Origin: an uncultured virus (IMG/VR IMGVR_UViG_3300031998_000016)
Lineage: Duplodnaviria; Heunggongvirae; Uroviricota; Caudoviricetes
Virus record (IMG/VR): IMGVR_UViG_3300031998_000016
DNA length: 64,000 bases
Strand: one strand, 5' to 3'
Shown: positions 35 to 64,000 of the stretch, piece by piece
Position numbering within the stretch: position 1 is the first letter of the stretch
How the letters are laid out: every line of letters starts with the position of its first letter
The notes under the pieces: generated by a model
What the model was told of the DNA's origin: nothing
The model's input: the letters and a program-made list of their open reading frames with translations, nothing else
Databases searched by the model: none
Position numbers and translations under genes: made by a program

Positions 35-3000
35 TTACGATGGTAACAAATAACTACCATTTACACAAATGTGTCTATTTGCGGCGAGTGTATCTCCATA
101 ATATCTCAAAGTACCATCACTATTAAGATTTACACCGCAAGCTAATGGTGAAGCATTAGATTCATAAGCAACTATACCTGGAAGTACAATTGTTGAAGCC
201 GGTCTATATTCTGCCGCAACCGTACCAAGTAATGCGTTTGCATTACATCCACCGCTTCCTACTGTAAGAATGATTGATAATGTACCAACACTTCCTTTCT
301 TGAATACGATAGAGTTTCCAGAAAAGTTTGTAAAACCACTTGCACATGGGAACGAAACAGAAACTACTTCTTCAGTTGTTCCTCCGCCTCCGCCAATAGC
401 CTGAATGTTATTGTCGAAGATAGTGCTCTTTGGAGCTGTTGTGAATTCTTCCATGTTATCTAAAGTTACTGTGGCATTAGTAAAGGTTGTAAGTGAAACA
501 CCTTCTCGTATACCAACAAAATGTGTACCATTGTAATAAATGGATGCAATTGGAATTGGAGTACCGTCAGAGGTTTCTCTGTACCAGCCTGTTGTCTACG
601 GAATACTCCTCCAAGAATATGATGTAAAGCCCTGAGCAGAGAATTCAGCGGCAAGCGCATCAAATACTGCCTATGTATCGCCCTGGAATGAAGTGCTTGA
701 ATTTGTATAAAGGTCAAATGAAATATAATAATAACCTTTACGATATAAGTAAATACGATGTAAATACTTCGGACTTCCGCCGCCACCTGTTCCAACTGGA
801 GCACTAAATGCCTGAATTGGAGCTTCAACACCAAGAGCTTCACAGATTAAGCGGTACATAATGTAATGTCCGTCGTTATTTGGGTGAATATGGAACGGAT
901 ATGATACGCCGCCTACAGTAGTAGTTTCAGTCTGGTTGAATAATGAGTCGAAAGCGTCTGTATCGTAGTTGCAATACTTAAGTAATCCTTCATATAAGTC
1001 AAGAAGTTCAAGGTTGTTATCCTTTGCCCACTGAGCAAGAATACAGTGAACTTCGTTCATATTTGTTACGTACTTTCCGGCACCTGCTGGTCCAAGACCA
1101 TCTTCATTAACAAGAGTTTCAGCAGTACAACAAGCCGGGATAAACTTAGCACCAATAGCTCTTGCTCTGTTATACATTGTTGTATAGTCATTATAGAGAG
1201 CCGCCATTTCTGTGCTACCTCTACGGTTATTTGTACCAAACATTGCAATTACAACATTTGAATAATCTGGCATTGCTGTTTCAATGTTGTTTACGGCATC
1301 TGTTGATACCCAACCTGAAACACCAGTGTTAACAACTGATACACCGGCTAAGTATCTCTATGAAAGATAATCTGCAAGTAAAGCCGCCCATGATTTTCCC
1401 TAATCTGCTGAGTAACCATATGTAATACTGTCACCCATAAGAGTAAGGGTAATTGGGTTATTACGTGTGCCTGTTGCAAAAAGTGCTGAAAGGTCATTTG
1501 ATGGAATTGTTACACCAGTTACGCCACTTAAGTGGTCAAGTCTTGCCGCATTTTCACCGGCTGCATCGTTAGCAGTTTCGCCGCTCTTTGTCCAACTAAT
1601 TGTTGTCCAGTCAATTTCGTCATAAGCAACGCCATCGCCCGGATAGAAACGCATAACTGCTGAAGCGGCACCAGATGGAGCAGTAGAAATTACGATGTGA
1701 GTTGAACCTGAGTGTCCTTGCTCTGCACCAACATTTCCGCCGGCAGCATCCTTATACTGAACGCCAACCCATGTGTATGAGCCGCAATCGAATGTGTATA
1801 ATTCGCCTTCGTCTACAGTAGCTTCAAAGTAAACGTCATTGCCTTCACGATGAGCATACTTAGGAAGATAACGATTTACTGTACCACTACCACTTGTTCC
1901 ATCTGCACCATTTGTAACAGTGAATGTTGATGTAGTGCTGTCAGTGTATGTTATTGTGTAAGTGTCTACAAGTCCTTCTGTACCAGTCTTTAAAATGCTT
2001 ACAATACCACGTCCATTTGAACCGTTTGTTACGGCAAAAGTTGAGGTTGTATCATTTGTGTAAGTTATTGTGTATGTGTCCACAAGTCCGACTGTACCAG
2101 TCTTTGTGATAGTTGAAATACCAACACCCGCTGGGCCTGTCGCACCAGTTGCGCCATCAGCGCCATTAATAACATCAAATGTTGTTGATGTACCATTTGT
2201 AAAGTTAATTGTATATGTGTCAGTTAAGCCTGCTGAAACTGGACCAGTAATAGAAGCGATACCATTACCAGTAGCACCTGTTGCGCCGTTTGTTACAGTA
2301 AATGTTGATGTTGTACCATTTGTATAAGTAATGGTATAAGTATCAACTAAGCCAGCTGAACTTGTTTTTGTAACAGTTGAAATACCTCTACCTGGTGCTC
2401 CCGGAAGTCCATCTTCACCATTAGTGATTTGGAAAGTAGTAGGATTTAAATTATCTGTGTAGTTGATTGTGTAAGTGTCAATAAGTCCTTCTGAAACTGG
2501 ACCTGTGATACTTGCAATGCCACGACCTGTAGAACCAACAACTACACCAACATTTTGTGTTGTGCTGTTGCTTAAAGTAAGAACAAGTTCGCCATCATTG
2601 TTAATTGCCGCACTTGAAACAGACACACCATTTGCACCATCTGTACCGTTTGTTACAGTGAAAGTAGATGTTGTGTTATCGTCCATAGTGATTGTATATG
2701 TATCAACTTTTCCGGCTGTTGATGTTTTGGCAATAGTCTTAATACCGTTTCCGGCTGGACCTTGCTGACCAGTTGCACCGTCATTAACTACGAAAGTTGT
2801 TGTTGTGTTATCTGTAAATGTTATTGTATAAGTCTTTGCTAAACCAGTTGTATCTGTAAGTGTAATTGACTTAATACCTCTACCAGCCGCGCCGTCTGCA
2901 CCATTTGTAACTGTAAAAGTTGACTGTGTAGAGTCTGTGAATGTGATAGTGTAAGTATCAACTAAACCACTTGTACCAGTCTTAGCAATACCACTAATAC

Positions 3001-5893
3001 CCTTACCAGCAGCACCTGTTGCACCATTTGTTACGGTAAATGTTTCAGTGTCGCCATCTGAGTAAGTTATTGTGTATGTATCGACAAGTCCTGTTGTATC
3101 TGTCTTAGCAATTGATGTTACACCCCTACCTTCATCACCAATTACATAACCAGCATCAATTGGGCTACCTTCTGAAAGTGTGATGATTAAGTGTCCTGTA
3201 TTATCTACAGCCGCATTAGTAACGGATACACCATCGTCACCATCATTACCGTTCGCGCCATCTGCACCATCTGTGATGTCAAATGTAAGAGCAACTGTAT
3301 CGTCAGTAAGAACAACCTGATATGTACTCTTCTTACCAACTGTACCAGTCTTAGTAACTGACTTGATGCCAACGCCATCAGCACCGTTTGAACCATCATT
3401 ACCATTTGTTACGGTAAATGTCTTTGTCTGGTTATTTGATAAAAGGATTGTATAAGTATCTACTTTGCCGGCAGAACCAGTCTTTGTGATAGATGTAATA
3501 CCAACACCATCTGTACCATTCTGTCCGTTTGTTCCGTCTGCACCGTTTGTTACAGTGAAAGTAGAACTTGCGCCAGATGTATAGGTGATAGTGTAAGTAT
3601 CAACCAGACCGTTTGTACCAGTCTTAGTGATTGACGAAATACCTCTACCTGCTGGGCCTGTTGCACCCTGAGCACCGTTTGTTACAGTGAATGTTGAAGT
3701 GGTGTTATCAGTGTAAGTTATTGTGTATGTATCTTCAAGTCCGGCAGAAACTGGACCAGTAATACTTACAATACCCTTACCATCTGCACCCTTAACAGCA
3801 CCAATAAGAACTGGAGTTGCAGAGTCTGTATATGTTAAATAAAGATTTCCGTTTGAAATAGATGCCGCAGAAATACCTCTACCAGCCGGGCCTTGAATCT
3901 GACCAACGTTTTTAAATCCGTTTACTGAGCCAGCTTCTGTAGTACCTGTGTAAACCCACATATCGCCGCCAATAAGGTAAGCATCGCCTTTTGTCTGACC
4001 TGTTGATGGAAGGTCTGCAGAACTTGATAAGCTGTCGATGATATTGATTGATGTACCATCCTTACCTTGAACTTCACCGGCATCAATTGGACTACCTGAG
4101 CTAAGAGAAATAATAAGGTGTCCCTGTGCGTTTACTGTAGCTGATGTAACTGAAACACCATCAGTACCATTAGTACCGTTTGTTCCATTTACACCATTTG
4201 ATACGTTAAATGTTGATGTTGTACCATCTGTATAAGTGATAGTATATGTATCAACATTTGCGGCAGTTGATGTTTTTGCAACTGTTGTGATACCACGTCC
4301 AGCCGCACCGTTTGCACCGTCAGAACCATCTGTAACATAGAAAGCTGATGTTGTGTTGTCTGTGTAAGTAATTGTGTAAGTATGAACACCGTTTGATTCA
4401 GCAGTTTCTTCAATCTTAACAATACCTTTACCATCCGCACCATCGTTACCATTTGCGCCGTTAGCACCATTGGTTACTTGGAATGTTGTTGTAGTTCCGT
4501 CTGAGAAATTAATAGTATATGTATCAATAAGACCAGCCGAAATAGGGCCTGAGATAGATGTTATACCGCGACCTGGAGTACCCTGAATAGAACCGTTGTC
4601 CTTAAATCCATGAACTCTTCCGCCGCCAGTCTGACCATCATAAATCCAAAGATGACCATTGATAAGGTAAGTATCACCAATTTCATTGTTTTCTTCTGGT
4701 AAATCTGAAGGGTCATCGAAAGAACCTTTGATTTCAATTGACTTACCATCTTCACCTTTTGCTACACCGGCATCAATTGTTGTATTATCATCTAATGTGA
4801 TAATTAAGTGACCACTTGCATTTACAGCAGCACTCTTAACACCATTACCGTCTGCACCAGTTGCACCCGTTTGACCATCTGCACCTTTTACAACGCCGGC
4901 ATCTATTGTAGTGTTATCATCAAGAGTAAGGATTAAGTGACCGCTACCGTTAATTGTTGCGCCTTTAACACCGTTACCATCTGCGCCATTTGTGCCAGGT
5001 TCACCATTGTGAATTGAGAACTCATATGTTGTACCATCTGTATAAGTAATCTGATAAAGGTCTGTGAACTGTTCACTTGAAACTTTAGTAATAGAAGCAA
5101 TACCATTACCAGTTGCACCAGTTGAACCATCTGTGATAACTAAATCATATGTAGTATCATCACTGAATACAACCCTATAAGTCTTTTCAAGACCATCTGT
5201 TTCAATAAGACCAAATGATTTAACGCCCTTATATACGCTAATTGTACCATCTGCTGCAACACTAACATTCTGACCAACCTTTACGCCGCCAAGTGTACTA
5301 GCGGTTGCGGCTGGAAGTGTATAGAATGAAGGAGTCCAGTTAAGTACGATACCGTTATCGCCCCATGAACTTGATGCTGTAATAGCGTTCCAGCTATAAG
5401 GAGCATTTGTAAGTGAACATACCTTCCACCATAACGCTGGCTGATTTACCATTACTTCAACTTCTGCATTGCCGCTAAAAGGTAAAGCCTTTGAGTAAAG
5501 CTGACCAGTTATGATTGTATTCTGTGGTAAGTTCTTAGCAATAAGTTCGTCTGATATTTGCTTTAAAGTTTTTCCCGAAGTATTAATACCAAGAGCAGTA
5601 AATGTTGTGAAATTATACTGTGCAGATAACTTAGTATTAATATCAGCGATAACTCCGTTTAAGAGTTTAATTTCATTGCCACTCTAAACAAGAATTTCAT
5701 TACCATTAAAACCGATTAAGTCGCCAACTTCAACAGTCTGGCCGCCATCTGTTTTAGTGAGTGAGTATGTAACTTCTCCTGTTTGGGCTGTGTATTTTTC
5801 TACAGAATAAGTTGCGGTACTTCCACCGCCACCTCCTCCGCCGCCACCGCTACTAGAGCCAGTGCCGCCGAATGGGTCAAAGAAACTTCCCAT
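35..5893 (-). CDS. 1952-aa repeat-rich tail fibre/adhesin-like protein with SGNH/GDSL hydrolase domain (5 in-frame TAG=Gln)
   Basis: ORFs 5684-5893, 1400-5452, 671-1273 and 35-454 share one frame, separated only by TAG (5684, 1400, 1358, 671, 596). RBS GAGGTG before ATG 5893; ends TAA. About 26 beta-rich repeats with Gly-X-Y linkers. SGNH blocks GDSIT / NTGVSG / FGTNN / HIHPN span two TAGs. Confidence 0.85.
1890..5230 (-). repeat. Protein-level tandem repeat array in the fibre gene
   Basis: About 18 copies of GIxSIxKxxxxGLVDTYTITYTDxTTSTFTVTNG, 6 of GVxSAxVNxxGHLIITLxxxxxIDAGxVxG and 2 of SIxIxxSxxxxxDLP...GDxYLIxG. Confidence 0.9.
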
Positions 5894-10287: not shown

Positions 10288-10683
10288 ATGTCCAAAGGAG
10301 AAGACAAGGTTGCAAAGTTACTTTCTGAAAATGGAATTCAATTTAAAAGAGAATTTATATTTTCAGATTGTAAGAGTTTAAGGGGAAAATCACTTCGGTT
10401 TGATTTTGCAGTTTTTAAGAATGGAAAGCTGGTGTGCCTTATAGAAATAGACGGCAGGTAGCACTTCCAGTACACACCATATTTCCATAAATATAAAATT
10501 GCTTTTCAACGCCAACAAGAATGGGATAGGAGAAAAAACGCTTATTGTTTATCAAAGGGTATTCCACTTATAAGAGTGCCTGAATGGGAAATTAAGGATT
10601 TAACAATAGAGCGGCTATTTACAGACCCGTCTTTTAGGGTGACGACAAAAAATCATAATCTGTTTTTGAAGGAGAGAAAGTAA
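10288..10683 (+). CDS. PD-(D/E)XK/Vsr-like (DUF559/DUF2726-like) endonuclease, 131 aa (1 TAG)
   Basis: SKGE...LRFDF...LIEIDGR[TAG]HF...DxxKNxYC...IPLIRVP. TAG 10459 falls at the Q of the IExDGxQH motif. Confidence 0.8.
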
Positions 10684-10684: not shown

Positions 10685-11527
10685 ATGGGATTTATTTATA
10701 AAATTACTAATTTAATCAATCAAAAAGTTTATATCGGACAAACATCTAGAACAATAGATATTCGGTGGTAGCAGCATCTTGAACTTTCTAAAACGGGAGA
10801 AACACATCTGTATCGAGCCATGAGAAAATATGGTATAGAAAATTTTTCTATAGAACAAGTGGAGGAAACATCTTTACTTAATGAAAGGGAAATTTTTTGG
10901 ATTGATTATTATAAAAGCTTTGAGAAAGGTTATAATATGACTCTTGGCGGAGAAGGTGGCAAAAAGATTCAAATAGATAAAATAATCTCTTTGTGGAATC
11001 AGGGATTAAATTTATCTGATATTTCTTTAAAAACTGGTCATGCAATACGACACATAAGTAATGCATTATAGACAGAAGGTATTACAAAAGAAGAAATTTT
11101 TAATCGAGGCCAAGAGACGGCATGTGCTAAAAGAAGTGTTCCTGTATATAAATTTGATTTAAATGGTAATTTTATTAATAGTTATTGTTCAGCCAAGGAA
11201 GCTGGTAGAGATAATAATTTATCAGCTTCACACATTTTAAATTGCTGCAATGGTAAAGAATTAAGTTGTGGTGGATTTTTATGGAGTTTTTCTCAACAAA
11301 TTGGTAAACAAAATGTTTCCAAGAAAAAATAGGGTGGAAAAATAGATAAACGTCCTGTTGAACAAAGAGATAAAAACAATAATTATATTCAAACCTTTGA
11401 ATCATTAGGTGCCGCGGCGAAAGCCGTAAACGGTTCTTCGGCAAACATTTTTGCTGCTTGTAATGGAAGGCAAAAAACTGCTTATGGTTTTAAATGGAAT
11501 TACGACATGGTGGAGGTGAGAAAATGA
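10685..11527 (+). CDS. GIY-YIG homing endonuclease with two NUMOD1-like repeats, 280 aa (3 TAG)
   Basis: GFIYKITNLINQKVYIGQT, GYNMTLGGEG, and two PV..xD.NG...F.S...A...CC.G....GF.W repeats. TAG at 10769, 11069, 11330. Ends TGA overlapping the next ATG. Confidence 0.85.
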
Positions 11528-12117: not shown

Positions 12118-12330
12118 ATGGTAAAAGAAAGTATTGTCAAGAATGGTAAAGAACAGGCTCAACTCGCCGCCATTTTTGAAAGATGGATTGACGAGGGACA
12201 GACAGGGCAAGAACTTGTTGTTGAGTCTGATTATGATTTTTGCGGCGAAAAACTTAACCGATATGTTAACTCCCTTGCTTTAAAATTAAAATGGCGTTAT
12301 AATACAATACATTTTATAGAAAAGGAGTGA
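12118..12330 (+). CDS. Hypothetical protein, 70 aa
   Basis: RBS GAGGTG, first gene after a promoter. Confidence 0.7.
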   Translation: MVKESIVKNGKEQAQLAAIFERWIDEGQTGQELVVESDYDFCGEKLNRYVNSLALKLKWRYNTIHFIEKE

Positions 12331-12334
12331 TGTT

Positions 12335-14551
12335 ATGGAGAAGGTAATTAAACGAAATGGAGAAATCGTTGATTACGAAGGACTAAAAATTGAAAATGCC
12401 GTATATGGTGCTTTCAAGGAAGTCTATCCTAACTCAGAAGAACAAGACAGTGTTCTCATTGAAATGGCCGTAAAGATGATGGTTGAGGTTAAGTTTAGTG
12501 ATGTTGATGCTGTGAGTGTTGAAGAAATACAGGACGCTGTTGAAGAAAGCTTAATGCTGCTTGACAAGGACGTAGCTAAGGCATATATCCAGTATAGATA
12601 TAAAAGAGCTATAGCAAGAGATTCCCTTGATGCTCAGGTACTTGCTCTCTTAAAGGGAGAAAATGAATACCTGAAAACAGAAAATTCCAATAAAGACTGT
12701 GATATAGTAACAACTCAAAGAGATTATATTGCCGGTCTTACAAGTAAGGATATTTCTGCAAGATACCTTTTACCAAAGGATATTATAAAGGCGCATAATG
12801 CTGGACTTATTCATTTCCATGATATGGACTATTTTGTGCAGCCAATTAATAACTGCTGTCTATCAAACATGGATGACATGTTACAGAATGGTACAGTTAT
12901 GAACAAAAAGTTAATTGAACCTTCGAGTAAATTAATGAATAGAACAACAGTTATGACACAGCTCATTACTGCTATTTCAAGTTCTCAGTACGGCGGACAG
13001 ACAGTTAATTTATCAGCACTCTCACCGTATGTAAGAGAAACTCACGAACGCCTAAAGGAAAAGTATCGTAGCATGGGTTGTCTTGATGAAAAGGGTGTGG
13101 AATATTACGCATGGAAAGATATGCAGAAAGAAATCGAAGATGCAGTTCAGACCTTTAATTATCAGATTAATTCAATGTCTACAACAAATGGACAGACACC
13201 TTTTATTAGTGTGTTTATGAATATTGGTGATAAGGAAGGTTATGAACAGGAAACAGCCGCACTTATCAGAGAGTTCTTCAAGCAGAGAATTGAGGGTATG
13301 AAAAATGAACAGGGTGTTGCAGTTACACAGGAATTCCCTAAGTTACTTTACGTGCTCGATGAAAATAATGTTAAGCCGGGAAGTAAGTATTATGATGTGA
13401 CTCAGCTTGCCGCAGAATGTGTGGCAAAACGTATGCAGCCTGACTTCATTTCAGCAAAGAAAATGAGAGAATATAAAGACGGCAATGTATATGGTTGTAT
13501 GGGTTGTCGTAGCTTCCTTTCTGTAGATAGATTTACAGAACAATATGGTAATATTGCAAAGGCAAAGAATTTTGATGGCAAGCCTAAGTTCTGGGGCAGA
13601 TTCAATCAGGGCGTTGTTTCAATTAACCTTCCGGACGTAGCCTTTTCATCAGGCGGTGATATGGATAAATTTTGGCAGCTTATGGATGAAAGAACAGAGC
13701 TTTGTCATAAAGGTTTAAAATGCCGCCACGAAAGACTTGAAGGTACATTATCAGATGTAGCCCCTATCTTATGGCAGCATGGTGCTTTTGCAAGACTTAA
13801 GCCGGGCGAAAAGATTGATGAATTACTTCACCATGGTTATTCAACAATTAGTCTTGGTTATGCCGGACTTTATGAGTGTGTTAAGTACATGACAGGTCAC
13901 TCACATTCTGACCACGGAGTTGGTGAGGAATTTGGACTTAAGGTTATGCAGTACCTTAATGATAAGTGTGAGAAATGGAAGGCCGAAGAAGACATAGACT
14001 ATTCACCATATGGAACCCCTATTGAGTCCACAACCGATAAATTCGCTCGTGGATTAAAGAAGCGTTTTGGTGATGATATTTTTGTTAAGCTCGATGGTAA
14101 AGATAGAAATTACATTACTAATAGTTATCATGTTCCAGTATTTGAACACATCAATCCTTTTGAAAAACTGGAGATTGAAAGTAATTTCCAAGCATTGAGC
14201 ACAGGTGGTGCTGTTTCATATATTGAAGCCGCAAATCTTGAAAATAATATTGATGCTGTATTACAGGTTATTTCATTTATGTATGACCACATCTTATATG
14301 CAGAAATCAATACAAAGTCTGACTATTGTATGAAGTGTGGATATGATAAGGAAATTAAGATTATCACAGATGAAAATGGTAAACTTGATTGGGAATGTCC
14401 ACAGTGCGGAAACCGTGACCACAGATTTATGTCTGTAGCAAGACGTACCTGTGGATACATAGGTGCAAACTTCTGGAACCAGGGTAGAACAGACGAAATC
14501 AATAATAGATTTGTGCATTTAGATTGCCACGAGTTAGGAGAGATTAAATGA
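12335..14551 (+). CDS. nrdD: Anaerobic (class III) ribonucleoside-triphosphate reductase with ATP cone
   Basis: VIKRNG ATP cone, HFHDMDY, NNCCL, MGCRSFL, CxxC...CxxC, glycyl-radical RTCGYIG. Confidence 0.95.
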   Translation: MEKVIKRNGEIVDYEGLKIENAVYGAFKEVYPNSEEQDSVLIEMAVKMMVEVKFSDVDAVSVEEIQDAVEESLMLLDKDVAKAYIQYRYKRAIARDSLDAQVLALLKGENEYLKTENSNKDCDIVTTQRDYIAGLTSKDISARYLLPKDIIKAHNAGLIHFHDMDYFVQPINNCCLSNMDDMLQNGTVMNKKLIEPSSKLMNRTTVMTQLITAISSSQYGGQTVNLSALSPYVRETHERLKEKYRSMGCLDEKGVEYYAWKDMQKEIEDAVQTFNYQINSMSTTNGQTPFISVFMNIGDKEGYEQETAALIREFFKQRIEGMKNEQGVAVTQEFPKLLYVLDENNVKPGSKYYDVTQLAAECVAKRMQPDFISAKKMREYKDGNVYGCMGCRSFLSVDRFTEQYGNIAKAKNFDGKPKFWGRFNQGVVSINLPDVAFSSGGDMDKFWQLMDERTELCHKGLKCRHERLEGTLSDVAPILWQHGAFARLKPGEKIDELLHHGYSTISLGYAGLYECVKYMTGHSHSDHGVGEEFGLKVMQYLNDKCEKWKAEEDIDYSPYGTPIESTTDKFARGLKKRFGDDIFVKLDGKDRNYITNSYHVPVFEHINPFEKLEIESNFQALSTGGAVSYIEAANLENNIDAVLQVISFMYDHILYAEINTKSDYCMKCGYDKEIKIITDENGKLDWECPQCGNRDHRFMSVARRTCGYIGANFWNQGRTDEINNRFVHLDCHELGEIK

Positions 14552-15021: not shown

Positions 15022-15022
15022 G

Positions 15023-50466: not shown

Positions 50467-50471
50467 ATAAA

Positions 50472-53400
50472 TTAATTCTGTTGTAAGATAGTAGGCGAAC
50501 CAATTGGTTTTGCTATTTCTACGATTTCTTGTTTAACACGTTCTATCATACTATCAACATCAACATCTGAGGATAATTTGTCGATATTAAGATTAATCTC
50601 TACCGCTACGTCTCCGCCGCGATTGTTGGTGATAGATTGTGAGAAGTTCTTGCCATCAAGCCAAGGAATATCAGCAAGGATTTTTGCGGCTTCACCGATT
50701 CTTGCTGTGTCTTCGGCTGAAAGGAAGGCTTCTGGTTTTGAGTAGGAACCATCTACCCAGGCCGGACCTGTGTAGTTTACAAGACCGCCGTCTGCATACT
50801 TTGATGCAAAAAGTGTTCCAGTTTTTGATGAAGCTTTTACAGCTAAACTTGCATAATTTAATATATCACTACCATGAACACCTAAACTATGAGCAAGCTG
50901 TGAGTATTCTGCCGGGAATTCTTCGTATAATTCTTTCATCATTTTCTCAGTAAAATATGTTCCTTTAGTATTTGTCTTCTCGAAGAGAGCCTGAGCAACC
51001 TGTGTTAATTGCCCCTTTGCCGTTCCCATATTTAATCCAGTAGTTAATAACTGTAAGAGTTCTTTTTTATCTTTTGAACCTAAGTTTGCTGTATTTAAAG
51101 GACCTATAGGTATATCACTAGAAACATTAAACTAATCACTTTCTGCATGACCAGGGGTAGTAGAACTTCCGCCCTATCCATCGCCGGCTCCAAGTTTACC
51201 AGCTAATTCATCAGCTTTTTCCGCACATTCAGCTAATTTTTCGTAAGCGTCTTGTAGTGCTTTATTAGCAGCATCAATAGCTTCTGCCGCTTTTTGCATA
51301 TCTTGTGTAAAGGCATCAGTTGTTTCATTAAACTGTCTAATAACTTCCTGTGTGAAAGCCTCTCCAGTCTAATTAACAATATTTGAAACTTCCTGTCCAG
51401 TTACTGTTGTCATTTCAACAATATAATCACCAGTTTCAGTTACTGCATCCATTGCTTGTAATGCCATGTATTCGGTAGCTTCTTCATAAGTATTAGCATA
51501 TTCTGCTAATTTTTCCTATTGCATAGCTAATGTCATGTCAGCATATTCCTTAGAAATAGAACTAATATACTGAGCATATTCTTCTGCATTATCAAAACTA
51601 TTTATCATAGATTCTGCTTTTGCGTTCCAATATGCTGTATTATCAACAATAGCTTCTTTAAGTTCCATTTCTTCATTACGAAGCTCTTCTTGTGATTCAT
51701 AAAGTTTTTCAAGATTGTCAACCACATTGTCAATAGCATCATTGAGCATTTCTTCTCTAGACTTTTCTACGTCTTTTTCAAGACTAGCAACTTCTTTAGC
51801 ATTTGCTCCTGATGTATCACGGCGCATAAGTGAAAGTTTCTTTTCTTGCTGTGCAAGTTCTTCCCATTTGTTTTCTTGTTCTCTTAATTTCTTTTGCTTA
51901 TCAATAGCATCTTTAAGAGCATCAAGGTAATCGTCATCTTGCTTCTTTAAATCATCATACTTAGATTTTTGGTCATTAACCTCATCTTCATACTGCTTCT
52001 TTAAAGCTTCTGCTAATTGCTTTTCAAGTGCGGTATATTTCTTTAAAGCATCTTCGCGTTCTTTCTGAATGTCCTTTTCTGCCTTTCTTACATTATCCTC
52101 AGATTTAAGTAATTCATCAGCATACTTGTTATATTCAGAAACTTGCTGTTCAATAAGGTCTTTAAACTTATCGCCAAAACGGGCTTCATTAAGAAGTCTT
52201 TGGTCAAGCATATATTTACCGGTTCTTGCATCTTTACGAGCGTAGTTACCAAAGTTAATATTAGTTGTTTCACCAGTTTGAGCATTAGTATAAGCATATG
52301 TGCCGTTTTCAATCATGTTACCATAATTGTTTAAGCCGGCCTTAATAGCTTCTTGCTTTGCCTTTTCTTCTGCGATAAGCTACTTTGTTGCCGCGCCATA
52401 CCTATTCATTGCATCAATAGCAGAGTCGATAGTGTTAGCATCTTCTACTATATCTTTCGCGCGAGAAAGTTCATCATTAAATGAACTTAATGCTTCGTTA
52501 TAGTTATAAAGATTATCAAGACTTGATTTACGATTCTCTGAACCATTTAATAAATCATTATATTCTTTAATCTTTTCATTAAGGTCTTTCTATTTTTCAG
52601 CAACATCTTCTTGCGCTTTAGCTAAGTCTTTTAAGGCTTTTTCATAGTTCTTAGCATTTTTCTCGGCATCAGTTTCGTCTTCCATAGTTGTGGCAAGGGC
52701 TTCATCTAAGTAAAGATAAGCACCCTCTGCATAGCCTTTCATGGCTTCAATAGTTGATTTTAAAGCTTCTATACCGGCTTCTTTCTGCTTAATATCTTCT
52801 TTTTCTGCTTCTGTAGTCGCCTAAGTAGCTTTCATTATTAAGAGCTAATTTTCAGCTACAGATAAATCAGTTTCCATCTTAGCAATTTCTACAGCAATTT
52901 GGTCTTTATAAGCCTATGTTAAATCATTAACATCTTTGATTGAACGAGTGTTATAATCTAAGAAATCATTAGGGTCAAGACCAATTTCACGGAGATTCTT
53001 ACTTATGCTTGTAAAATTATTAGGAGTTAAGAAACCTTTTTTATGGAATTCTGTAAGTGCATTTGTGATACCAGAGAATGATTCAGAAATGCTATTAATA
53101 GCATTTTCTGCATCTTCTTGCATTTGGTCAACACCGGCTTCACTAGCTACGCCCATACCATTCATAATACCATAACTTATGCCGCGTTCCATTTCAGTTT
53201 GCCAAATATCAGCAGCCTATTCCGCAGCATTTTCAATAGAAGGGTTTGCTTCCTTTAAGGCATCTGCCATACCTTCTATTGTTTTTTGCTTGGTCTTCGC
53301 ATAATTTGAAGAACTTAATTGTGTTAAATCTATTGAAGTTAGTATGTCCTGAATCTTAGAACTATAGCCAGTATTTTGTATTTGACGGAAGTAACTTGTT

Positions 53401-56400
53401 GCTTTTTCAGAACCAATTGTTTCGCTTACTCTTTGGTATCTGTTATAAACACCCTATAACTCTTCGTAAGATGCATCAAGAGGAACTAATAAACCACTTT
53501 CTAATATTTTATTTTCAAGCTCTTTGGTTTTGTTTTGAACGATTTCAAGTGTTGCGCTCTTTACTGAGTCAGGTAACTTTTCACTTTCTTTTTCAAGTTG
53601 CTCTTTAGTATAGGTTACCCATTCTTCGTCAAACTTTTTAAAACTTTCTATTTCACTTTCTGCAAGGGATTCATAAGTATCTAAATAAGCGTCAATAGCA
53701 TCAGAATTTTTTAACCACTGTTCAATTTCAACATCCTTTTCTTCCCAGTTATCTTTGGTTAATTCAAGAGTTTTAACCATTTCTGGGTAAAGATTTTTTA
53801 TAGTATCAAAATCCCAGCCTTCTACTGAATATTCTTTTTCTGTAATTTCAGTAGCCTGCTAAATGGCCTAAGCCATAAGCATGGAATCATTCATTAATGG
53901 TGCTAATTTTGAAACTTGTGTTGCATCATACTGTGAGTTAAATTTTTCAATTTCCGTTTGTAAACCAGTATTATAAATCTTTAACGCATTTTCATATTGT
54001 GTTTTAAGTTCGCCGCTAAAATAATCAGCACTGGATAAAGCCTATGCAAGTGTTACGTCTCCACCGGCTTCTTCCATTATAGCCTTCATTAGGTTTAAAT
54101 AGTAATCTGGTAATTCTGAGTTTTTAACCACATCTTTTAAACGAGTAGTGTTATTAATACCAGCTTCTTTAGCAACCGTAGACATTTTGTTGAAATCGGT
54201 ATCATCTGGATTTGCTATTAACTTTCCTTTTGCATCAAGTTCTGACATGGCTGTTATATATGCAGATTTCTTAGCATTTTTTGCCTAAATATCTGCTTTT
54301 TCAATTATGTCATCCCACAAATCATTTTGAATTCTTAATTCACCAGTTATTTCATTATAGTATTCTACTATTTCAGGGAATTTAGTTCTTATTGTTTCTA
54401 TTAATTTATTATATTCTTCTTGTTCTTCTTCTGTCTTAATAACTACGCCATTAAGCTCCTAATATCTTTTCTTTACTTCTTCAACATTATCGGCTTCTTC
54501 TTGTGCATTTTTAGCTTCATCTGATTTTGTCTAAGCAAGTTCTTCTAATTCCTCTGCCGCTTCTCTAGTTCTTTCGAGCTTCTTTTCTACAGAATTAAAT
54601 TGTTGATTCTTTACCAGGTGTGCAATTCCCCATCCAGCAAAAGCTAATGCTGCGGAAATTGCTCCAACTAATACAGATAAACCTGCTGAACCTACTGCCG
54701 CACCTTCTGCAAGCGCTGCTCCCATTTCCTCGCCTGTAACAAATAGCTAAGGAATTAACGGAATTAAAGAAGTGAGTAACATGATGCCGGCATTTCTAAA
54801 GGCTGTTTCAGCATCCGTTATTCCACTTACAACACTAGTAAATGCCATACCTAAAGTTGATAGTGGCATAGCTAAACTTGACACAAGTTGCTTGCCTGTT
54901 ATTTTAAGTCCCTAAGCTCCAACATGAAGAGTTTGTTCTATTCTACCAACTTCATTATTTAATTTTTTTACTCTATCTTCAGCAGCTGTAGCTACAATAA
55001 CATTTTTCCTAAGAGCTTCCGCAAACTCTTCGTCTGATAAGGTAGCTAAACCTAATTTATCTTTTAACTAGTTAACCCATGAAGTAAAGCCCTAAGTGGT
55101 CTAACCAGCCGCGACCATTGTATTGTAATAGTCTATTAAAGAATGAAGAGCATTATCTGAATAAACATTAAGTTCTTTAAAACCCTCTGCATACTACCTA
55201 ATAAACAAATCTCCATTTGCCGGAGCATTTGTACCAATAGTCATTGTCTACAAAGCATCAGAAATTGTTAATCTTATTTTTTGTTTAACATTTTCTAGGT
55301 CTCTTGTAATGGCTCCCATCGGGAGTTTTATAGGAATAGTTAATGGTTTCTGTTCAAGTAACTTTGATGCCGCGCCAATACCATCTGTAAGCTATTTTGT
55401 AAATAACTTAACGAAACCAACGGTACTTACAATACCAGTACCCAGTGTTGCAAGTGTTTCTTTAAGATTTAAAGAAGACAGTCTTTCTAGAATATGTGTT
55501 AAATGGTCAAGTAGGCCTTTCCAAAGCTCATTATCAATAATTGAAACTTTAAATTCTTCCCATAAAGTTTTTATCTTATTTATTCTATATTCAACTGTGT
55601 CTGAATATTTACTGAACTGCTGATTGGCTTTGCCGGCTGAATTTGCGGCGGTATCCATAAGTTCTACAGTTCTGTCATAACCTTCCATAAGAGCAAGGAA
55701 ACGAGACTGCTGTCTTGAGCCGGCCGCAATTGTAGCAATATAACGCTGAGTATTACGGTCTAATGATGACCATTTACCAGATAATTCAAGTAATACTTCA
55801 TCAAGATTTCTAAACTGTAAATTTTCATCCTTAAGCTAAATGCCTACAGATTTTAACGCTTTATCAATCTTGTTAAGGTCTATACTCTCTACGTCACCTT
55901 CTACATCAGAAACATTATTCTTTAATTCACCAAATCTCGCGATAATAGTTTTTAAAGATGTACCGATGTTTTCTGCACCTTCCTGAGTGGTTTCAAGCAT
56001 ATGAGTAAGGAATACGGCTGTATTTTCAAAACTCATACCAGCAGAGTTTGCGATAGCTGCAGTTCTTTCCATAGCTGCCGCAATTTCATCAACGGTTGCA
56101 GCTGCGTGAGCGGCAAGTTCTGAATAAACGTCAGTAATGTGTGAACCTTCATTCATTTCCATATTGAAACCATGAAGTGTAGATGTCATTTCTTTTGTGG
56201 CTGTACTAAAGTCACTACCTGCTAATGTAGCAAGTTTCATAGTATCTGTTGTTAACTATAAAGCTTCATTAGTATCAAGACCTTGCTGATAGAAAAGAGC
56301 TGATGCCTGGATAACGTCTGTAGTAGACTGACCTAATCTTTCGGCCATGTTAGCATACTATTCATAAGAACTCCACATCTGCTTAACAGATTTATCAGTA

Positions 56401-57680
56401 ACCATGGCGATAGAACCGAAGGCTTTATCTATGTTCTAAATGTCAGTAAATGTTTTCTTAACTTCTTGTCTTATTCTTAACCAAATAGTTTGGAAACTAA
56501 AGATATAAAGTAATTTTTGTCTTAGTCCCTCAATGGCAACACTAGCCTTATTGGCGCCGGTAGCCATAGTCTATTGGGTTTCGGCCATGGCATTAAATTT
56601 TGCACGACCCTCATCAACCTCATTATCTAAGTTGTCTAATATTATATCCTGTTGTGCTAATACTTTATTAATACGTTCTTCTTTACCTAAAGTACCTGGC
56701 AATATACGGTCTAATTGTGCATAAGATGCAGCTATGTTTTTTAATTGACCCTCAACCTATCTCATATATGCTGCACTAACTTTCCATGTACCAGATTCTT
56801 TATCTTCTGTACCAATTAATCGAGCATTCGCTTTAGCTTCTTTTCTTTCACCAACGAGAGCCTTACCTTCTGCAGTAAGGTCTTTAATTTTTTTCATTTC
56901 CTCAATAGCTGCCGCTAAATTATCATAGAACTATTTCGCACCAGTATTTGCTACGTTTAACGCGTTACCAAGACCATTTTCTGCAATATATTTATTAAGA
57001 CTTTTCCATGCGCCTTCAACAGTCTTTGCTGTGAAAATAATCTCTTTTGCTCTTTGTAAAATAGCTGCTCTATTACCAGCATCTCTACCGCCGCCTGATA
57101 AGATATTCATAGATTTTCCGGCGGCATCAACGCCCTAATCTGTTATCATATTTAAAGCATTATTTTTAACAGTTTCTTTTTGGTTCTTTATAGCTTCTTC
57201 TCTAGCTTTAATATTATTTAATATATTAACCCTAGTCTGTAATTCTGCATTAATTTCTTTGTTTATAGCAGATTGTTTATCTGAAGCTACAAGAATGTTT
57301 TTCATTACTTTATCAATATTCTAAAAACCAGCACTACTAAAAACGCTATTTAAACCAGCTAACGCCACCTTAGTTTTTCCACTTAAATCCTTAACATCAA
57401 CTCTTAAGTTTTTAAACTGTCTATCAAGGTCTTTAAAATTTAATATAAGGGCATTAACATCCTATTGATATTTATCAATGTCTTTACCAGTGGTAAAACC
57501 TTTTGTACCTTGCTGTTTTAATTTAGCATACTGTTTTTCTAATCTTTCTAAACTTTTATTTATAGGAGATAACGCATCGGAACTATAACCAGCAGCCTCC
57601 ATCTCTTTTAATGCCTTTTTATAGCTAGAGACAAGACTGGTAGTATCGAGGTCTACACTATAAACTGTTTTATTTCCCAT
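50472..57680 (-). CDS. Tail tape measure protein, 2402 aa (at least 30 TAG)
   Basis: Nine supplied ORFs lie in one frame. TP901-like core (IAMVT...LFYQQG...MKLATLAG...ENIGTSLKTIIARF), hydrophobic mid-segment, coiled coils, C-terminal YADGGLVNYTGPAWVDG...PEAFL. 34 in-frame TAGs counted by hand; not every gap was checked for TAA/TGA. Confidence 0.85.
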
Positions 57681-57696
57681 TTAATCACTCTCCTTT

Positions 57697-59697
57697 TTAT
57701 AAAGCTTTTTGAATTAATATTTCAAGCTTATCTTTAATATTTATTTGTAAACCACTAAAGAAAAGTTTGAGACTATCTCTCCATATTTCAGGCACTTCGC
57801 CCGGAACAACTTTGCCTTGTTCATTAAGATAAGGCGCTAATTTATCTGCTATTTCTTCTACACTTTTTGGATTACCAAACATATCTAAGAATGCATCATC
57901 CCAAGTGCCTAATAAATAATCTTCATCTGTATTTCTATGCATCTATCTTCTCCTGTATGGAGTATATCCGAAAGCAAATTCTCCATTCATACTTCCCAAA
58001 TCTGTTTTATTTTTTAGTGATTGATAGAAAGACTAAAAAATAGCAGAAGAAGGAATAAAATTAAAGTTGACAACATAAAAATTGTTTCTAAGTTCTTTGT
58101 ATTCGTCTAACTGGTCTGCCTATCCATAACGTAAAAAATTAGGTTTGGCACGCTGTAGTTCCAACTAAATACTTGGCATTAAACCCTCGCCGAAGGCAAA
58201 GGTCTTGTCCACATAGTTATATTGACGATATAACCATAATCTATTTAATGTTTCGACAAGTCTATCATATATTGAATCAGTAAAGTATCTTGAAGCAGTC
58301 TTTTGGTTATAAATATTAAAACAAAAATCATACATTAGAATACCCTAACCAAAAGTAGAACCAGACTTAATCTGAAAACCTAAACCATTTAATTTACCTT
58401 TTTCTTCCTGATACATTGCAATATCAATAGCGTTTTGACCGCTACCTGTACTTTTTTGTCCAAGCACTTCGACGATGTATTCCATATTATATTCCGTATT
58501 CATGGAGTTTAAAAACAATGCCATTAATATTTCTCCCATAGTACCAGATGTTGCGGATAAAGTAGTTGTTTTAAACAACTCTTTGAGTAAATGCGGGTCA
58601 TTTTCCATTAGCTATTTTAACCTACCCTAATGTTGCATAATCATAGATTCATTAATTATTACCCCATCATCTTTTGGTTTATTTGTTATAATTGCATCTG
58701 CTACTACCCTTAAAAAAATTTCTGCTACCTTATTGTAGTCTATTTTTTTAGAGTTGGCGGTAATTCCTGCCGCACGAAGCTAAACAACAAATTCAGACCC
58801 TTTAAATTTAGAGCCTAACTATTCACCGTCTTTTAACTATAATGCACTATATTTTGGATTCTATAGCACGCTACTAATCCCCAAATGTAAATTTTTTAAC
58901 ATAGTTTCTTGGTCTAAATTTAGCTGTACAAAATCTAAATCTTCATTCGGAAGATTTAGTGTAACTTTAAAGGCTTCTGCTACATATTCACTACCAACCT
59001 TTACCATTTTTATCTTATGTTTAACTTTCTCTAAGCCCCCATCCCTCACTACGCTAAAAATTTTTACATTATTTTTTTTCTCTCTTTGTACTTTTCCATC
59101 GGGGCCTTTTACTTTTTTATATATGGTATATGAACCATTGAGCATACCACGCATTATTACATCAGATAAATCGGCTAGCATACTTTCTTTTAATGCACCG
59201 CCTTTTCCGTCATCTAAGCCCTCCATACCTTTTCTAAAACGCCTGTAAATTTCTTCACCCATCTTTTTCATTACTATTTCTAAGCTACGCAAATTTACAT
59301 TGCCATTACGGTCTAAAAATTCACCTTGCCATTTATTAGTTTGAAGCTCCGGAGTGGAAGCTATAACAGTTTTTCTCAAATCCTTCAGACCCTATTCACC
59401 GGTTAACTAGCCAATAACATCTGAATTATTAAAACGTTTTATAATAGAATTTCTAACCTAGAAATAATATAAATATTGTAACCACTCATAATTTGTACCA
59501 AAAACAGCTCTTTTTAAAGCTAATTGATAAGTTTTAAAACCATCTTCTGTTAAAAGCAAACTATATAAATGTTCAGGTGTATCTATTGGATATTCAGCTT
59601 TACTATATAGTTGCTATTCTTTGCGGAAAGACTGCTCTGATAACTCTTTAAAACAGCTTTCTAAATCTACAGCTAAATCTGCCTAAGTTAATTTCAT
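57697..59697 (-). CDS. Hypothetical protein, 666 aa (at least 16 TAG), possible PD-(D/E)XK-like motif
   Basis: ATG 59697 overlaps the upstream TGA (ATGA), RBS AGGTG. Three supplied ORFs in frame. GE...IDI...GFQIK. Confidence 0.65.
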
Positions 59698-60593
59698 ATA
59701 TAATCACCTGATATTTCATTATTTAAAAAAGTAACATTAAATATTCTTTCATCGAATCTATCTTCAGCCGGGAAACCAACAAAGTTAAAATCACTTACAA
59801 CAGAGGTGTTATATGATGTTCCAAGCTTCATTGCTAAGTTTGAACGTATTTTAATCCGAGGAATTTCAAGTATAGCTGTAGTTGGCTAGCCAGTAATATA
59901 ATCCTTAACAGTCATCTTACCAGTTAATCGTAAGAAGTCCTTAAATAATCTATTACCAACTTCTAACTCAATAATCTTATCTGTATAATCAAAGGTATAG
60001 TCAACAACCACCTTTTTATGTTCCGCCATAAAGATTATTGTATTGCCGCAAATTTCAAAGTTTTTAATGCGTTTACCAGTCTCCCCATCATAGCAGAATA
60101 TGTATTTATCTGATTGCGGTGCAAGTGGTTTAAGTGGTATCCAAGGTTTACGACCCATTGGCATAGGTTCATTTTCCGGATTACCCTGTAAGCCTACTGG
60201 TCCATCAACGGCATTTGGTAAAAACTTTAAAAGACAAAAATAATTGTCTCCGTCTTCAACGACAGGGACTTCTTCCTTATACCCCACACTCTTTACAGTA
60301 GGTCTACCTATTTTAGAATCGCTTAATACACTCCAAGACGTTGCTGAGAGTATTCCGTTTGATATTGCGAAGTTTGCTTGTGTATCAGTTACCCAGTCCA
60401 TTAACATATGATTATGATAACCGCCGCGGGCTTCTCTGATGTCTTTTTGTTCAGAAACCTGAGCTATATCAGCTCTTTCAAAATTGAGAATAGCTTCATT
60501 GATGTCATAGTGTTGACTACCAATAGTAATTTCCTCGTTTAATCTAAGACTGACATCATACAGTTCCTTAATTCCAACAAGATTATCTTCCAT
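59694..60593 (-). CDS. Tail-tube-like structural paralogue, 299 aa (1 TAG)
   Basis: GIKELYDVSL, ARGGYHN..LMDW, TG[Q]PTTAILEIPRIKI; same motif skeleton as the upstream genes. Confidence 0.65.
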
Positions 60594-60638
60594 AATATCA
60601 CCTCCTTTTTAATATTGTAGCTGAAACTGTTCACAAAT

Positions 60639-60669
60639 AAAAAAAGAAGTGGGCGATTAAGCCCACTTC
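60639..60669 (-). terminator. Intrinsic terminator
   Basis: Minus strand GAAGTGGGC-TTAATC-GCCCACTTC-TTTTTTT. Confidence 0.8.
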
Positions 60670-60673
60670 GTTA

Positions 60674-62788
60674 TTAATACATTTCTTCATTTGCGGCAAC
60701 TACCTCTTCTTTGGTTTTAAGAATTGGTGTCCGAGCATATCGTTTGCTCTGAGGAATAATTCTTTCGCCGCCATTTCTTTCATCTTTTTCTGTGTTGTAG
60801 AATATTAATTCAACAGCATCTTTATTTTCATCTATCGGGTCAAGAATACCAACATCAAACGAGAATGTTGCTGGCTCACCCTTTCCGCTTAGGTTTAATG
60901 TAGTTGATGAAGAAATTGTTGCTCTATTTATTACAATTTGACAAGGCTGGTCTTTACCGGTTGCCTGGTCTTTAACCATTGTGTCACCAACAATAAGATA
61001 TTCGCCTTTGAAAGTATCGTAGTTAATTGGGATGTTAATGCCTAAGAATGAGATGTCGTTATCATCAGTATCTACCACTCTTTCCTTTTTCCAGTAGCAC
61101 GTACCATATTTAAGTGTGATATAATCGCGTTTAGTAATAAGGAATAGAGCAATTGCGGCATCTTCATCTATCTTCGTGATTATAATATCATTTGGAGTTA
61201 ATGAAGAAACCCATTCTGAAGCTTCTTGTCCATAAAGGCGTAATAAATAATCTTGAATAGCATCTAAGAACTTATTCTTTTTCGCGGCAAGAAAATCTTG
61301 CATAGTATCATATCTATTCATAAGGGTTATACCTTTTTGCTCAGTTATATCTTCTGTTAAGAAAGTGGATTGTGCAAAAGGCATCATAGTTTTGGCATCA
61401 TAATAAACTATGTAATTATCCTTTTCATCTTTATACATTTTCTTTATGTTTGAGAACTATTCTACCAAATCTATTTTAAGACCATGAGGGTCGGTAACTG
61501 TACATTTTGTATAGCGGTCAATTTGTTTAACTTCCTTTAAGGAGTTCTACTGATAACCGTAATCTTTTATTTCATTGATTTCATCAGAGATAAGGTTTAT
61601 AATTTGTTGTGGCATTGCTAGACATTGCTTTTTCTAAGTCTAGAACCAACAATATGGATTAGAATAGTCCTATTTATTAAGTCCATATGTGGTGTACTAA
61701 CTAAATATTGTATCTAATTCTGATTTAGAGAGTAAGAACCATAAAATATTATCTAAAAATTCTTTATTGCCTATTACTAATTCAGTAGAGTGACTTTCCA
61801 TAAAGCTGCCTGGAAATATCTAATAGAATATTTCGGCACTAGTATTTTCAGATGATAATGCTCTAGCTCCCTTAAAACCAGGCTCTGGCTCAGAACCACT
61901 GCCTATCACAATTCCAGCCATCTTAGCAACAATACCCTTATAACTATGAAGAAGTACAGTACAAAAACTACAATATAATTCTTTAGTTTCCTTATCTTCT
62001 TCTGAATAATACCTTATTCTGCAACCACAATTATAATCAAGAGTATCATTTAAGTGTGATTCAGTAATAAATTGGTATATTTTATAAGTATTATCAGTAT
62101 TTAAATAAATAGCCACACCCTAAGCATCTTTACTTATATCTACATAAGGTGCCAAATTCTAAGAGAATGGAGTCTTTTGAGTACGGTGTAAATAACCTTG
62201 TTTTAATAACCATCTGTTTTCTGCTACAAGACCATTATCTTGGTCATCCTAATCATATAGGTATTTAGCGGTATGGTCATGGTATTCATCAACACCTCTT
62301 TTAATTACACCGCCATTATAAATTTCTTGTGGTATCATATCCCCAGTTCTTGGATTAAAACCAGCTTTCTACGCGCATCTAAAAACTATCTCCCACTCTT
62401 CATCAGTTAATTCCGGTGATGGGTAAGCTTTTGTAGAATATGAATTACGGCCATATTTATTTGCCACACTTAACTTAGCAATAGCAGATGTCCAAGGTGA
62501 CATTTTCTGTGCTAACTGTCCTGCCGCAAGCATACTTAGAGAAGCCTGTGTAAATAAAGCATCTTCTGCCTTTAACTTAATATCTTTTGTATAAGACCAC
62601 GAAATGGTCTTTCTATTACCTATACCACCATAGTGTTCAGATGTACCTACATTCTTTGAAAAATTAGTTAACTTCAAAGAATCAAGATATAGGACTGGGA
62701 GATAAAACTCCTCAGTCCCAATCCTGTTTATTGAGTATAAAGTAACGTCAGCTACATCTCTTATTCCTTTTTCAGCAAAAATATTCAT
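60674..62788 (-). CDS. Tail-tube-like structural paralogue with large insertion, 704 aa (multiple TAG)
   Basis: GIRDVADVTLY, PVLYLDSLK, GGIGN..ISW, EDALF; C-terminal YLIVGDT...TGKD...GEPATF. Three supplied ORFs in frame; ends TAA TAA. Confidence 0.7.
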
Positions 62789-64000
62789 TCGCTCTCACTT
62801 CCTTTGATAGTAGCTGAGTATTCTTCTGGTGTTAAAATACGCGGCTCTAAAGTCTAAGATGGTAATTTTGTTTCGTCGATAGAATATACATTTAATGTAC
62901 CTTCTATAACTGCATTTACATTTTCCGGCGCAAGTTCGTAGTCTTCTGTAGTCTTTACTTCACCTTGCTCTTCACCAAGTAAGATAGGAGCAATATCTCT
63001 ATCCTAAGCGTAAACCGCAAGCGTTAAATCTGGTTCGACAGTACCACTATATTCTTCCGGATATAATACTGGATGAGGACTAGTTTCCTCAACAACAGTT
63101 TCAATATTCTTGCCGCAAGGACAAGCATTATTAACTACATCATAAGCAGTTAATATAATCATTTGACCATTCTTTGGTCTTAATGCATTTAATTTCATTG
63201 AGAATACAGTTGGGTCGCCACTTGCATTTAAGTTTAATTTATTAGTTACAGACAATTTGCATAATGGAATTTCAATTTGGTACTTAATATCTTCTCCATA
63301 TCTATCGCGCATAAAAGTCTGGCCAACAAACTTAAAGTAGCCGGGATAATGTTTAGAATCTATAATAAGTCTTTTGCCTAATGATTTGTGTTCTTTAGCC
63401 TTGAAACGTTCCCATTTATAATAACGTTCCCCACCTTTGATTATAGCTAAGTTACCTGTAACCCTTTGACCATTGCGGCGATAAAATTCAAAAGCATTTG
63501 GTATGTATGGTTGCATTGTCTTAGGGTTCAAATAAACCTTTAAAGGTGTCTGGGAATATTTGTCAAGGTATCTATACTGTCCGTGAAGCATATTTACATC
63601 AGTGTCTATACAGAAGTCCTGTTTAGCTACGAATTCCTCACATTCTTCTATATAGAAGGCATCGTCGTATCCTGTTTCTAGTTTGTATATAGTTTCTTGC
63701 GGCGAAGTAATATTAGTATTGTACACTACATTTACATTAGCAAAATAACGGTAAGGTAAGTAATCGCCATTGTTAATGGCATAATTTTCATCAGTTGTTC
63801 GTTGGCTATAAAGTTTATTGCGTTCGCAACCACTTCTATAACCATCTATATATAAATTCTATGTCAAGAACAAAACGTCCGAATCTGTTACATCTTTACC
63901 CCATTCCTTTAATGTAGCAATAGCCACTGGTTCATATTCCTTTTTAGCGTTGGTAATGTGTTCTCTTATCCATTCAAAAACTTCTCTACCATACTGATAA
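62785..64000 (-). CDS. Tail-tube-like structural paralogue, 5'-truncated by the window (at least 3 TAG)
   Basis: YFKFVGQT...QIEIP..KL...L.ASGDPTVFSM. Reads through TAG 63004 to TGA 62785, which overlaps the next ATG. Confidence 0.7.

Follow-up and report, generated by a model that had tools for sequence, protein, structure and literature searches.

In-frame TAG codons read as glutamine and enriched in the late genes of a large cattle-gut phage

Gene content and reading frames of the window

The window analysed here is a stretch of 64 kb (around 36% G+C) from an uncultured tailed phage, IMG/VR record IMGVR_UViG_3300031998_000016. Its minus strand carries a tail fibre gene and a long block of late structural genes (40303-63927), and its plus strand carries genes for DNA replication, nucleotide metabolism, DNA cleavage and recombination. 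Many of these genes are interrupted in frame by TAG, a stop codon in the standard code (translation table 11). Here we describe the evidence that this codon is sense and stands for glutamine (genetic code 15), together with its distribution among the genes. The window very probably makes up about one third of a tailed phage of approximately 180 kb that occurs in cattle-gut metagenomes, belongs to a type infecting Firmicutes and decodes UAG as glutamine, which may act as a lock on late genes.

Under table 11, 55 open reading frames (ORFs) of at least 100 amino acids (aa) are obtained, and the minus strand between 40.3 and 64 kb is chopped into short pieces. With TAG as a sense codon the minus-strand pieces merge, giving ORFs of 2402, 2164, 1952, 1054, 704 and 666 aa. 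Coding density, calculated as greedy cover of the window by non-overlapping ORFs, rises from 77.3% (70 ORFs, median 140 aa) under table 11 to 95.7% (43 ORFs, median 300 aa) with TAG as sense; the corresponding values for TGA and TAA as sense are 79.5% and 87.1%. Since table 11 loses about one fifth of the window and shatters the tail genes, correct annotation directly depends on calling this phage with code 15.

The gene list made with TAG as sense comprises 44 ORFs of at least 50 aa and contains 114 in-frame TAGs. Its ORFs end in TAA (31) or TGA (13); such ends follow from the construction of the list, yet no gene needs TAG as its end. Two of the 114 TAGs belong to small minus-strand ORFs of doubtful status, 32389-32610, which overlaps a plus-strand ORF, and 32762-32950. 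Interruptions of long frames are formed by TAG only and never by TAA or TGA, as had been stated in the initial annotation of the window, and the overlaps it described between neighbouring genes are also present, ATGA at four positions (14548/14551, 27911/27914, 59694/59697 and 62785/62788) and TAATG at one (15858). TAG positions are evenly distributed along genes, and family profiles continue through them. In the tape-measure protein both phrog_4211 (residues 10-1249, E 1e-54) and PF10145 (residues 445-649) span TAGs, and the same applies to phrog_2484 in the RecJ-like exonuclease (residues 1-583, E 5e-132), phrog_2765 in the PIN-PhoH protein (residues 5-404) and the Sak4/AAA_24 match of the annealing protein (residues 6-314). 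Matches of this kind were also obtained for the GIY-YIG/NUMOD and HNH/DUF2726 nucleases, the resolvase, the Dit-like protein, the tail fibre and the three phrog_2729 virion proteins.

Relatives of the phage were collected by scanning viral contigs with the 704-aa structural protein, which yielded 13 loci. One of them, a 77.5-kb fragment (G002), is 100% identical to window positions 57284-64000 and extends the genome about 70.8 kb rightward. Another (G003) is complete (180,579 bp), carries direct terminal repeats and runs collinear with the window, to which it is approximately 84-89% identical at the nucleotide level; window positions 395-64000 correspond to 97330-34813 of G003, in reversed orientation. 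The coding density of G003 likewise rises, from 80.7% to 90.7%, with TAG as sense. Complete relatives measure 157-181 kb, including G005 with 179.8 kb.

The initial annotation had considered that the TAGs might be assembly errors. They are not, because the same TAGs recur in G003, which comes from another sample and shares 28 TAG sites with the window, and in contigs of other studies. Among the listed pieces, contigs from runs of two further bovine-gut studies are letter-identical over 11 TAG codons, one (X5) over those at 56360, 56933, 59394, 59409, 59460 and 59616, the other (X6) over those at 54749, 55103, 55196, 55250 and 58167. Runs X1 and X2 were left out of this tally as a possible source of the DNA. 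No RNA runs containing the stretch were listed.

The residue encoded by TAG

Assignment of TAG to glutamine (Gln, Q) is supported by three independent lines of sequence evidence: conserved columns of protein families, exchange of TAG with CAA and CAG among relatives, and a likelihood comparison with G003. On these grounds we assign TAG to glutamine with high confidence.

Five TAGs, at 10459, 30718, 39770, 39941 and 39947, had initially been proposed to occupy Gln positions conserved in their families. All five are in frame, and the peptides quoted for them (IEIDGR-TAG-HF, TTP-TAG-IMIDD, LAFD-TAG-AT and FEDI-TAG-F-TAG) occur in the translations. The residue was called by tallying the corresponding columns of homologs, in place of a run of Codetta, and the proposal holds for each of the five. 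In the RuvC-like Holliday junction resolvase, TAG residues 84, 141, 143 and 209 correspond to Q in 120, 119, 117 and 120 of 120 homologs, whose background Q frequency is 5%; one of these four (Q in 120 of 120) had not been cited. Of the other two resolvase sites, residue 128 corresponds to Q in 60 of the 120 and residue 155 varies, G being present in 60. In RecJ, 118 of 119 homologs have Q at residue 575 and the remaining one has a gap; the stretch around residue 29 is variable, and 91 homologs have N at this position. At residue 58 of the HNH endonuclease, which belongs to the motif IE[YF]DGxQH[FY], Q occurs in 113 of 150 sequences representing 50%-identity clusters, and the codon in G003 is CAA.

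Because code 15 may already have been used in calling the database proteins, the resolvase sites were also read directly in the DNA of 66 viral loci. Residue 84 is encoded by CAA in 37 loci, TAG in 17, CAG in 9 and AAT in 3, and residue 209 by CAA in 31, TAG in 20, CAG in 8, GCT in 4 and ATA in 3. At residue 141 there are 48 CAA, 9 TAG and 7 CAG codons with 2 gaps, and at residue 143 there are 41 CAA, 12 CAG and 9 TAG codons with 4 gaps; one of the two patterns used to find the loci contained Q at residues 141 and 143, so that these counts lean towards CAA and CAG, while residues 84 and 209 are free of this bias. The conserved Q columns are thus no artefact of gene calling, since CAA, CAG and TAG replace each other there in the DNA of relatives. 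The resolvase gene has one or more in-frame stops in 37 of the 66 loci and none in the other 29, hence recoded and standard-code relatives are interleaved.

The third line of evidence covers the whole window. Out of its 114 TAG sites, 99 align to G003, where they face TAG (28), CAA (17), CAG (11), GAA (6), gaps (6), AAA (4), GAT (3) and others (24). The residues opposite TAG were scored under a model that uses each amino acid's own window-to-G003 substitution profile; Gln reaches a log-likelihood of -162, compared with -249 for Glu and -268 for Lys. In the reverse direction, in-frame stops of G003 face Gln of the window 27 times (4.8% of Gln sites) and any other residue at no more than 0.4% of its sites. 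The commonest partner codon, CAA, is two changes away from TAG, therefore the pattern reflects synonymous exchange of TAG and Gln codons and not mutational nearness. Residues at TAG are accordingly far from random, the case that had been named as speaking against the assignment; Gln fits them best by far.

Distribution and decoding of TAG

Of the 388 Gln-type codons in structural genes, 94 (24%) are TAG, compared with 7 of 264 (2.7%) for the replication block, or 5 of 262 without the two doubtful ORFs (Fisher odds ratio for structural versus replication genes 11.7, p = 6.5e-16); in the resolvase TAG accounts for 6 of 10. Base composition does not explain this bias, because out-of-frame TAG is similarly frequent in both blocks (2.0% versus 1.6%). 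The same division is seen in G003, with 0.3-1.2 TAG per 1000 codons in the replication block versus 5.5-10.2 in the structural block. All 21 aligned plus-strand ORFs of the window that lack TAG also lack it in G003. Genes with TAG in both phages are those for Sak4, RecJ, the resolvase and the HNH endonuclease and two unknown ORFs; the site in Sak4 differs between them.

The two modules also differ in codon choice. Between early (6691-9265 and 12118-39515) and late genes (35-5893 and 40303-63927), the share of CAG changes from 77% to 46% and that of AAG from 56% to 36%. The difference is limited to Gln and Lys, as shares of GAG, TTG, ACG and GGG are alike. Early genes may be tuned to the tRNA pool of the host and late genes to a pool supplemented by tRNAs of the phage, 23 of which are encoded in G002.

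The initial annotation placed the decoding machinery outside the window, and a scan of the 64 kb indeed found no tRNA in it; the nearest record (G001, 35.6 kb) also has none. G003 encodes 26 tRNAs, one of them with anticodon CTA (tRNA-CUA) at 120615-120689, about 23 kb past the left end of the window in collinear coordinates. G005 has a tRNA-CUA as well. Scanning with the 118-aa ORF next to the tRNA of G003 revealed two more metagenome relatives (L127 and L128), in both of which a tRNA-CUA lies just upstream of this ORF. The tRNA of L127 is identical to that of G003. In L128 the flanks are 90.6% identical to G003, yet its tRNA allele differs and resembles that of the distant relative G005. One syntenic spot upstream of the 118-aa zinc-finger-like ORF, with flanks 90-94% identical, is thus occupied by two clearly different tRNA-CUA sequences. 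Two unrelated alleles at one conserved locus suggest that the suppressor is an exchangeable cassette.

The U1-A72 pair marks bacterial tRNA-Gln for its charging pathway. All four tRNA-CUAs possess this pair and discriminator A73, a combination found elsewhere in the tRNA sets of G002, G003 and G005 only in tRNA-Gln(UUG/CUG); one tRNA-Gln displays it only after correction of its ARAGORN ends by one base. Overall identity of the tRNA-CUAs was rejected as a guide to their origin: best matches reach 65-69% to Ile, Gln, Glu and Leu tRNAs alike, and the acceptor end alone discriminates. No ribozymes were detected beside three of the tRNA-CUA loci with Rfam 15 (E <= 0.01), in which coverage of the 'theta' type (PMC10879173) is uncertain, and no HDV-like ones; the scan returned only the tRNAs and chance matches to plastid families. 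In the complete relative G004 the resolvase gene contains TAG (L094), and no tRNA-CUA is among the ARAGORN tRNAs of the loci checked; a partial match to the tRNA model (model positions 8-63), not called by ARAGORN, lies at 134993-135049.

We propose that the code is switched during infection. A standard-code host could translate the replication and nucleotide genes straight after infection, since they contain no TAG. An amber suppressor (anticodon CUA) derived from tRNA-Gln and encoded by the phage, probably outside the window, would then build up, be loaded by the host's own Gln-charging pathway and outcompete release factor 1 (RF1) at UAG. Full-length tail, tape-measure, baseplate and fibre proteins, the resolvase, other nucleases and homing endonucleases, with their 112 to 114 TAGs, would be produced only afterwards. 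Termination would still work, because all genes end in TAA or TGA. The switch might thereby act as a timer or lock on late genes. An alternative in which TAG still serves as a stop in early genes is not supported, as TAG is not overrepresented in the last decile of genes; the only suggestive case is the TAG-TAA end of the ORF at 36905-37807, where TAG could be the stop before the switch and TAA the stop after it.

Several points weigh against this proposal. Two of the six TAGs in the resolvase, as well as residue 29 of RecJ, fall in variable columns that are uninformative on the residue, and RecJ homologs are often nearly identical to one another, hence not independent. The labels early and late derive from gene function alone, and decoding of TAG as Gln in the phage is known from sequence alone. 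There is no tRNA-CUA among the 23 tRNAs of G002, the rightward continuation of the genome. The counterpart of G003 positions from about 97.7 to 140 kb, where the relatives keep their tRNA, was not recovered from contigs: an exact 48-base pattern taken at the start of the window matched nothing in viral contigs, and a pattern from the tRNA-CUA of G003 matched only G003 and one 2.9-kb contig. As G002 starts at about 140 kb and this part lies in neither G002 nor the window, absence of the tRNA from these two is uninformative. Neither an RF-1 domain nor a synthetase of the GlnRS/GluRS type (class Ic) was found in G002 and four complete relatives (G003-G006), therefore nothing beyond the tRNA accounts for overriding of RF1.

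A host that itself reads UAG as glutamine, with the phage mirroring its code and no switch during infection, would be consistent with the lack of tRNA-CUA, release factor and synthetase among the finds in the window and G002. Avoidance of TAG by replication and nucleotide genes, repeated in G003, is unexpected for an ordinary Gln codon, and relatives encode their own tRNA-CUA, which together make such a host very improbable. We also see only a slim chance that TAG is ambiguous or encodes another residue (Glu, Lys, Trp, Tyr or pyrrolysine). The automatic label given to the CUA tRNA by ARAGORN is 'Pyl', and where a site is variable the residues of relatives opposite TAG include E, K and A among others, but the label derives from the anticodon alone; Q is ahead of the next residue by 87 natural-log units, Gln columns are invariant in three unrelated protein families, CAA is the commonest partner codon in spite of its distance from TAG, and the acceptor features of the tRNA are those of tRNA-Gln. 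Finally, the many short ORFs of the late region under table 11 could be taken for fragmented pseudogenes or split genes ending in true stops, or for products of sequencing or assembly errors, a reading whose probability is negligible given frames broken by TAG and never by TAA or TGA, profiles that run across TAGs, 28 TAG sites conserved at 85% nucleotide identity, the same letters in contigs of other studies, and an even spread of TAG without pile-up at gene ends.

Preference is thus given to a phage that supplies the UAG-reading tRNA to a standard-code host, and several known systems resemble it. In E. coli, supE (glnV) is a tRNA-Gln with anticodon CUA that inserts Gln at UAG after normal Gln charging, and the same principle presumably operates here. 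As a weak chromosomal suppressor supE leaves UAG a stop, whereas a tape measure with 35 TAGs demands efficient decoding.

Code-15 gut phages have been surveyed by Borges et al. (bioRxiv 10.1101/2021.08.26.457843). In their account Gln is the residue with which TAG aligns best, recoding affects structural and lysis genes, replication genes vary and are mostly standard-code, hosts are standard-code Firmicutes and Bacteroidetes, cattle samples are included, and genetic code varies among close relatives. Suppressor tRNAs are reported there in only about 40% of recoded genomes. The phage of the window resembles the described ones in the residue, recoded structural genes, cattle-gut origin, size and mixed-code relatives. 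The large Firmicute-infecting clades Jade, Sapphire and Agate have genomes of approximately 150-200 kb; the phage is likened to them by description, and their recoded lysis genes have no counterpart identified in the window. Two TAG-recoded Agate phages have RF2, while RF2 was not found in the relatives examined here. Late-gene TAG-to-Gln recoding, including that of cattle-gut phages, is therefore already described and no new question is opened; our results add a large, well-documented cattle-gut phage of the Firmicute type, for which a complete collinear relative exists.

For crAss-like phages code 15 has been validated by metaproteomics (Peters et al., Nat Commun 2022, PMC9523058). They share with the present phage the use of TAG as Gln in a standard-code host; they differ by Bacteroidetes hosts, another lineage and gene set, and support at the protein level, where ours comes from sequence. 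Phassvirus phAss-1 (Babkin et al. 2023, PMC10607447) is described as a gut virome phage of more than 100 kb with TAG in many ORFs and suppressor tRNAs. It is alike in size class, origin and in-frame TAG in characteristic ORFs and, to judge from relatives of the phage studied here, probably also in suppressor tRNA genes. When 25 kb of the window were compared by megablast with cultured and deposited phages, a collection that may or may not include the phAss-1 group, nothing matched besides nrdD.

The designation 'Firmicute-type' given to the phage initially is reasonable on the basis of its polymerase and nrdD. The nearest cultured relatives of the DNA polymerase are Bacillus SPbeta-like phages (38% identity), and nrdD shares 70% nucleotide identity with Enterocloster phages. 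Membership among Lak or crAss-like phages was rejected, given the 157-181 kb of complete relatives and the polymerase affinity; Lak phages infect Prevotella and have genomes of about 560 kb on average, and crAss-like hosts are Bacteroidetes (bioRxiv 10.1101/2021.08.26.457843). Together with G003, the phage could be used to test how one suppressor tRNA switches the code in the middle of infection with neither a release factor nor a synthetase.

Genes with and without TAG

Genes and blocks of the window and the tRNA-CUA loci of relatives are listed in Table 1.

Table 1. Features of the window with their in-frame TAG codons, and tRNA-CUA loci of relatives (coordinates within the named locus)
Feature	Coordinates	Strand	Length (aa)	TAGs	Remarks
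Tail fibre, collagen-flanked repeats and GDSL lipase domain	35..5893	-	1952	5	PF13472, PF19079, phrog_6049
HNH/DUF2726-type endonuclease	10288..10683	+	131		TAG at Gln of IE[YF]DGxQH
GIY-YIG/NUMOD homing endonuclease	10685..11527	+	280	3	
NrdD, NrdG, thymidylate synthase, DNA methyltransferase, two topoisomerase II subunits, small ORFs	12118..23066	+		0	TAG-free block
Sak4-like AAA_24 annealing protein	23141..24094	+	317	1	CAG in G003
PIN-PhoH protein	24155..25378	+	407	1	TAG within PIN domain; phrog_2765
ORF without assignment, DnaB-like helicase, primase	25487..28966	+		0	TAG-free
RecJ-like exonuclease	28996..30822	+	608	2	TAG at residues 29 and 575; phrog_2484
DNA polymerase (DnaE/YorL-like)	32988..36908	+	1306	0	TAG-free
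300-aa ORF	36905..37807	+	300	1	sole TAG is the last sense codon, TAA next (TTT TAG TAA)
RuvC-like Holliday junction resolvase	39521..40264	+	247	6	60% of Gln-type codons
Late structural block, 8 ORFs	40303..63927	-		89	ORF list, profiles
Tail/baseplate-block protein	40695..47189	-	2164	11	without family match
Distal-tail-protein (Dit)-like	47204..50368	-	1054	11	PF05709, phrog_33
Tail tape-measure protein	50472..57680	-	2402	35	phrog_4211, PF10145
666-aa protein	57697..59697	-	666	16	42% of its own Gln-type codons; without family match
Virion structural protein	60674..62788	-	704	11	phrog_2729
tRNA-CUA, locus L054 (G003)	615-689				
tRNA-CUA, locus L127	2849-2923				
tRNA-CUA, locus L128	2883-2955				
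tRNA-CUA, locus L024 (G005)	2190-2263				

In addition to the tail/baseplate, Dit-like, tape-measure and 666-aa protein genes, the late block includes a 125-aa ORF and three phrog_2729 virion proteins. Further plus-strand genes free of TAG encode DNA ligase, a ClpP-like protease and dUTPase. The large terminase lies outside the window, and no lysis gene was identified within it. In the doubtful ORF at 32389-32610, TAG aligns with TGA in G003.

On the plus strand TAG is present in all six nuclease and recombination genes (HNH, GIY-YIG, Sak4, PIN-PhoH, RecJ and RuvC-like resolvase) and in none of the 12 annotated replication, nucleotide-metabolism or protease genes, a grouping chosen after the data had been seen. 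In G003 PhoH has no TAG and GIY-YIG has no syntenic ortholog; most other nuclease genes stay carriers. It is conceivable, if rather doubtful, that besides virion genes TAG locks DNA-cutting enzymes gene by gene, with the suppressor as an exchangeable cassette.

Under table 11 the RecJ gene yields a 518-aa ORF (29164-30720) that retains the DHH domain along with most of the OB domain and equals the called protein on record (P0122). Because TAGs trim only the ends of RecJ, a shortened form might be made before the code switch. The GIY-YIG/NUMOD gene (10685-11527) is missing from the syntenic place in G003, whose best match, at 153222-153845, is 38% identical; it is a mobile gene already using the phage code. 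In the tail fibre, surface repeats (PF19079) are long, and the GDSL lipase/acylhydrolase domain (PF13472) is C-terminal, at residues 1486-1676. Judged by these domains, the fibre may attack a surface polymer of the host as a depolymerase or an esterase.

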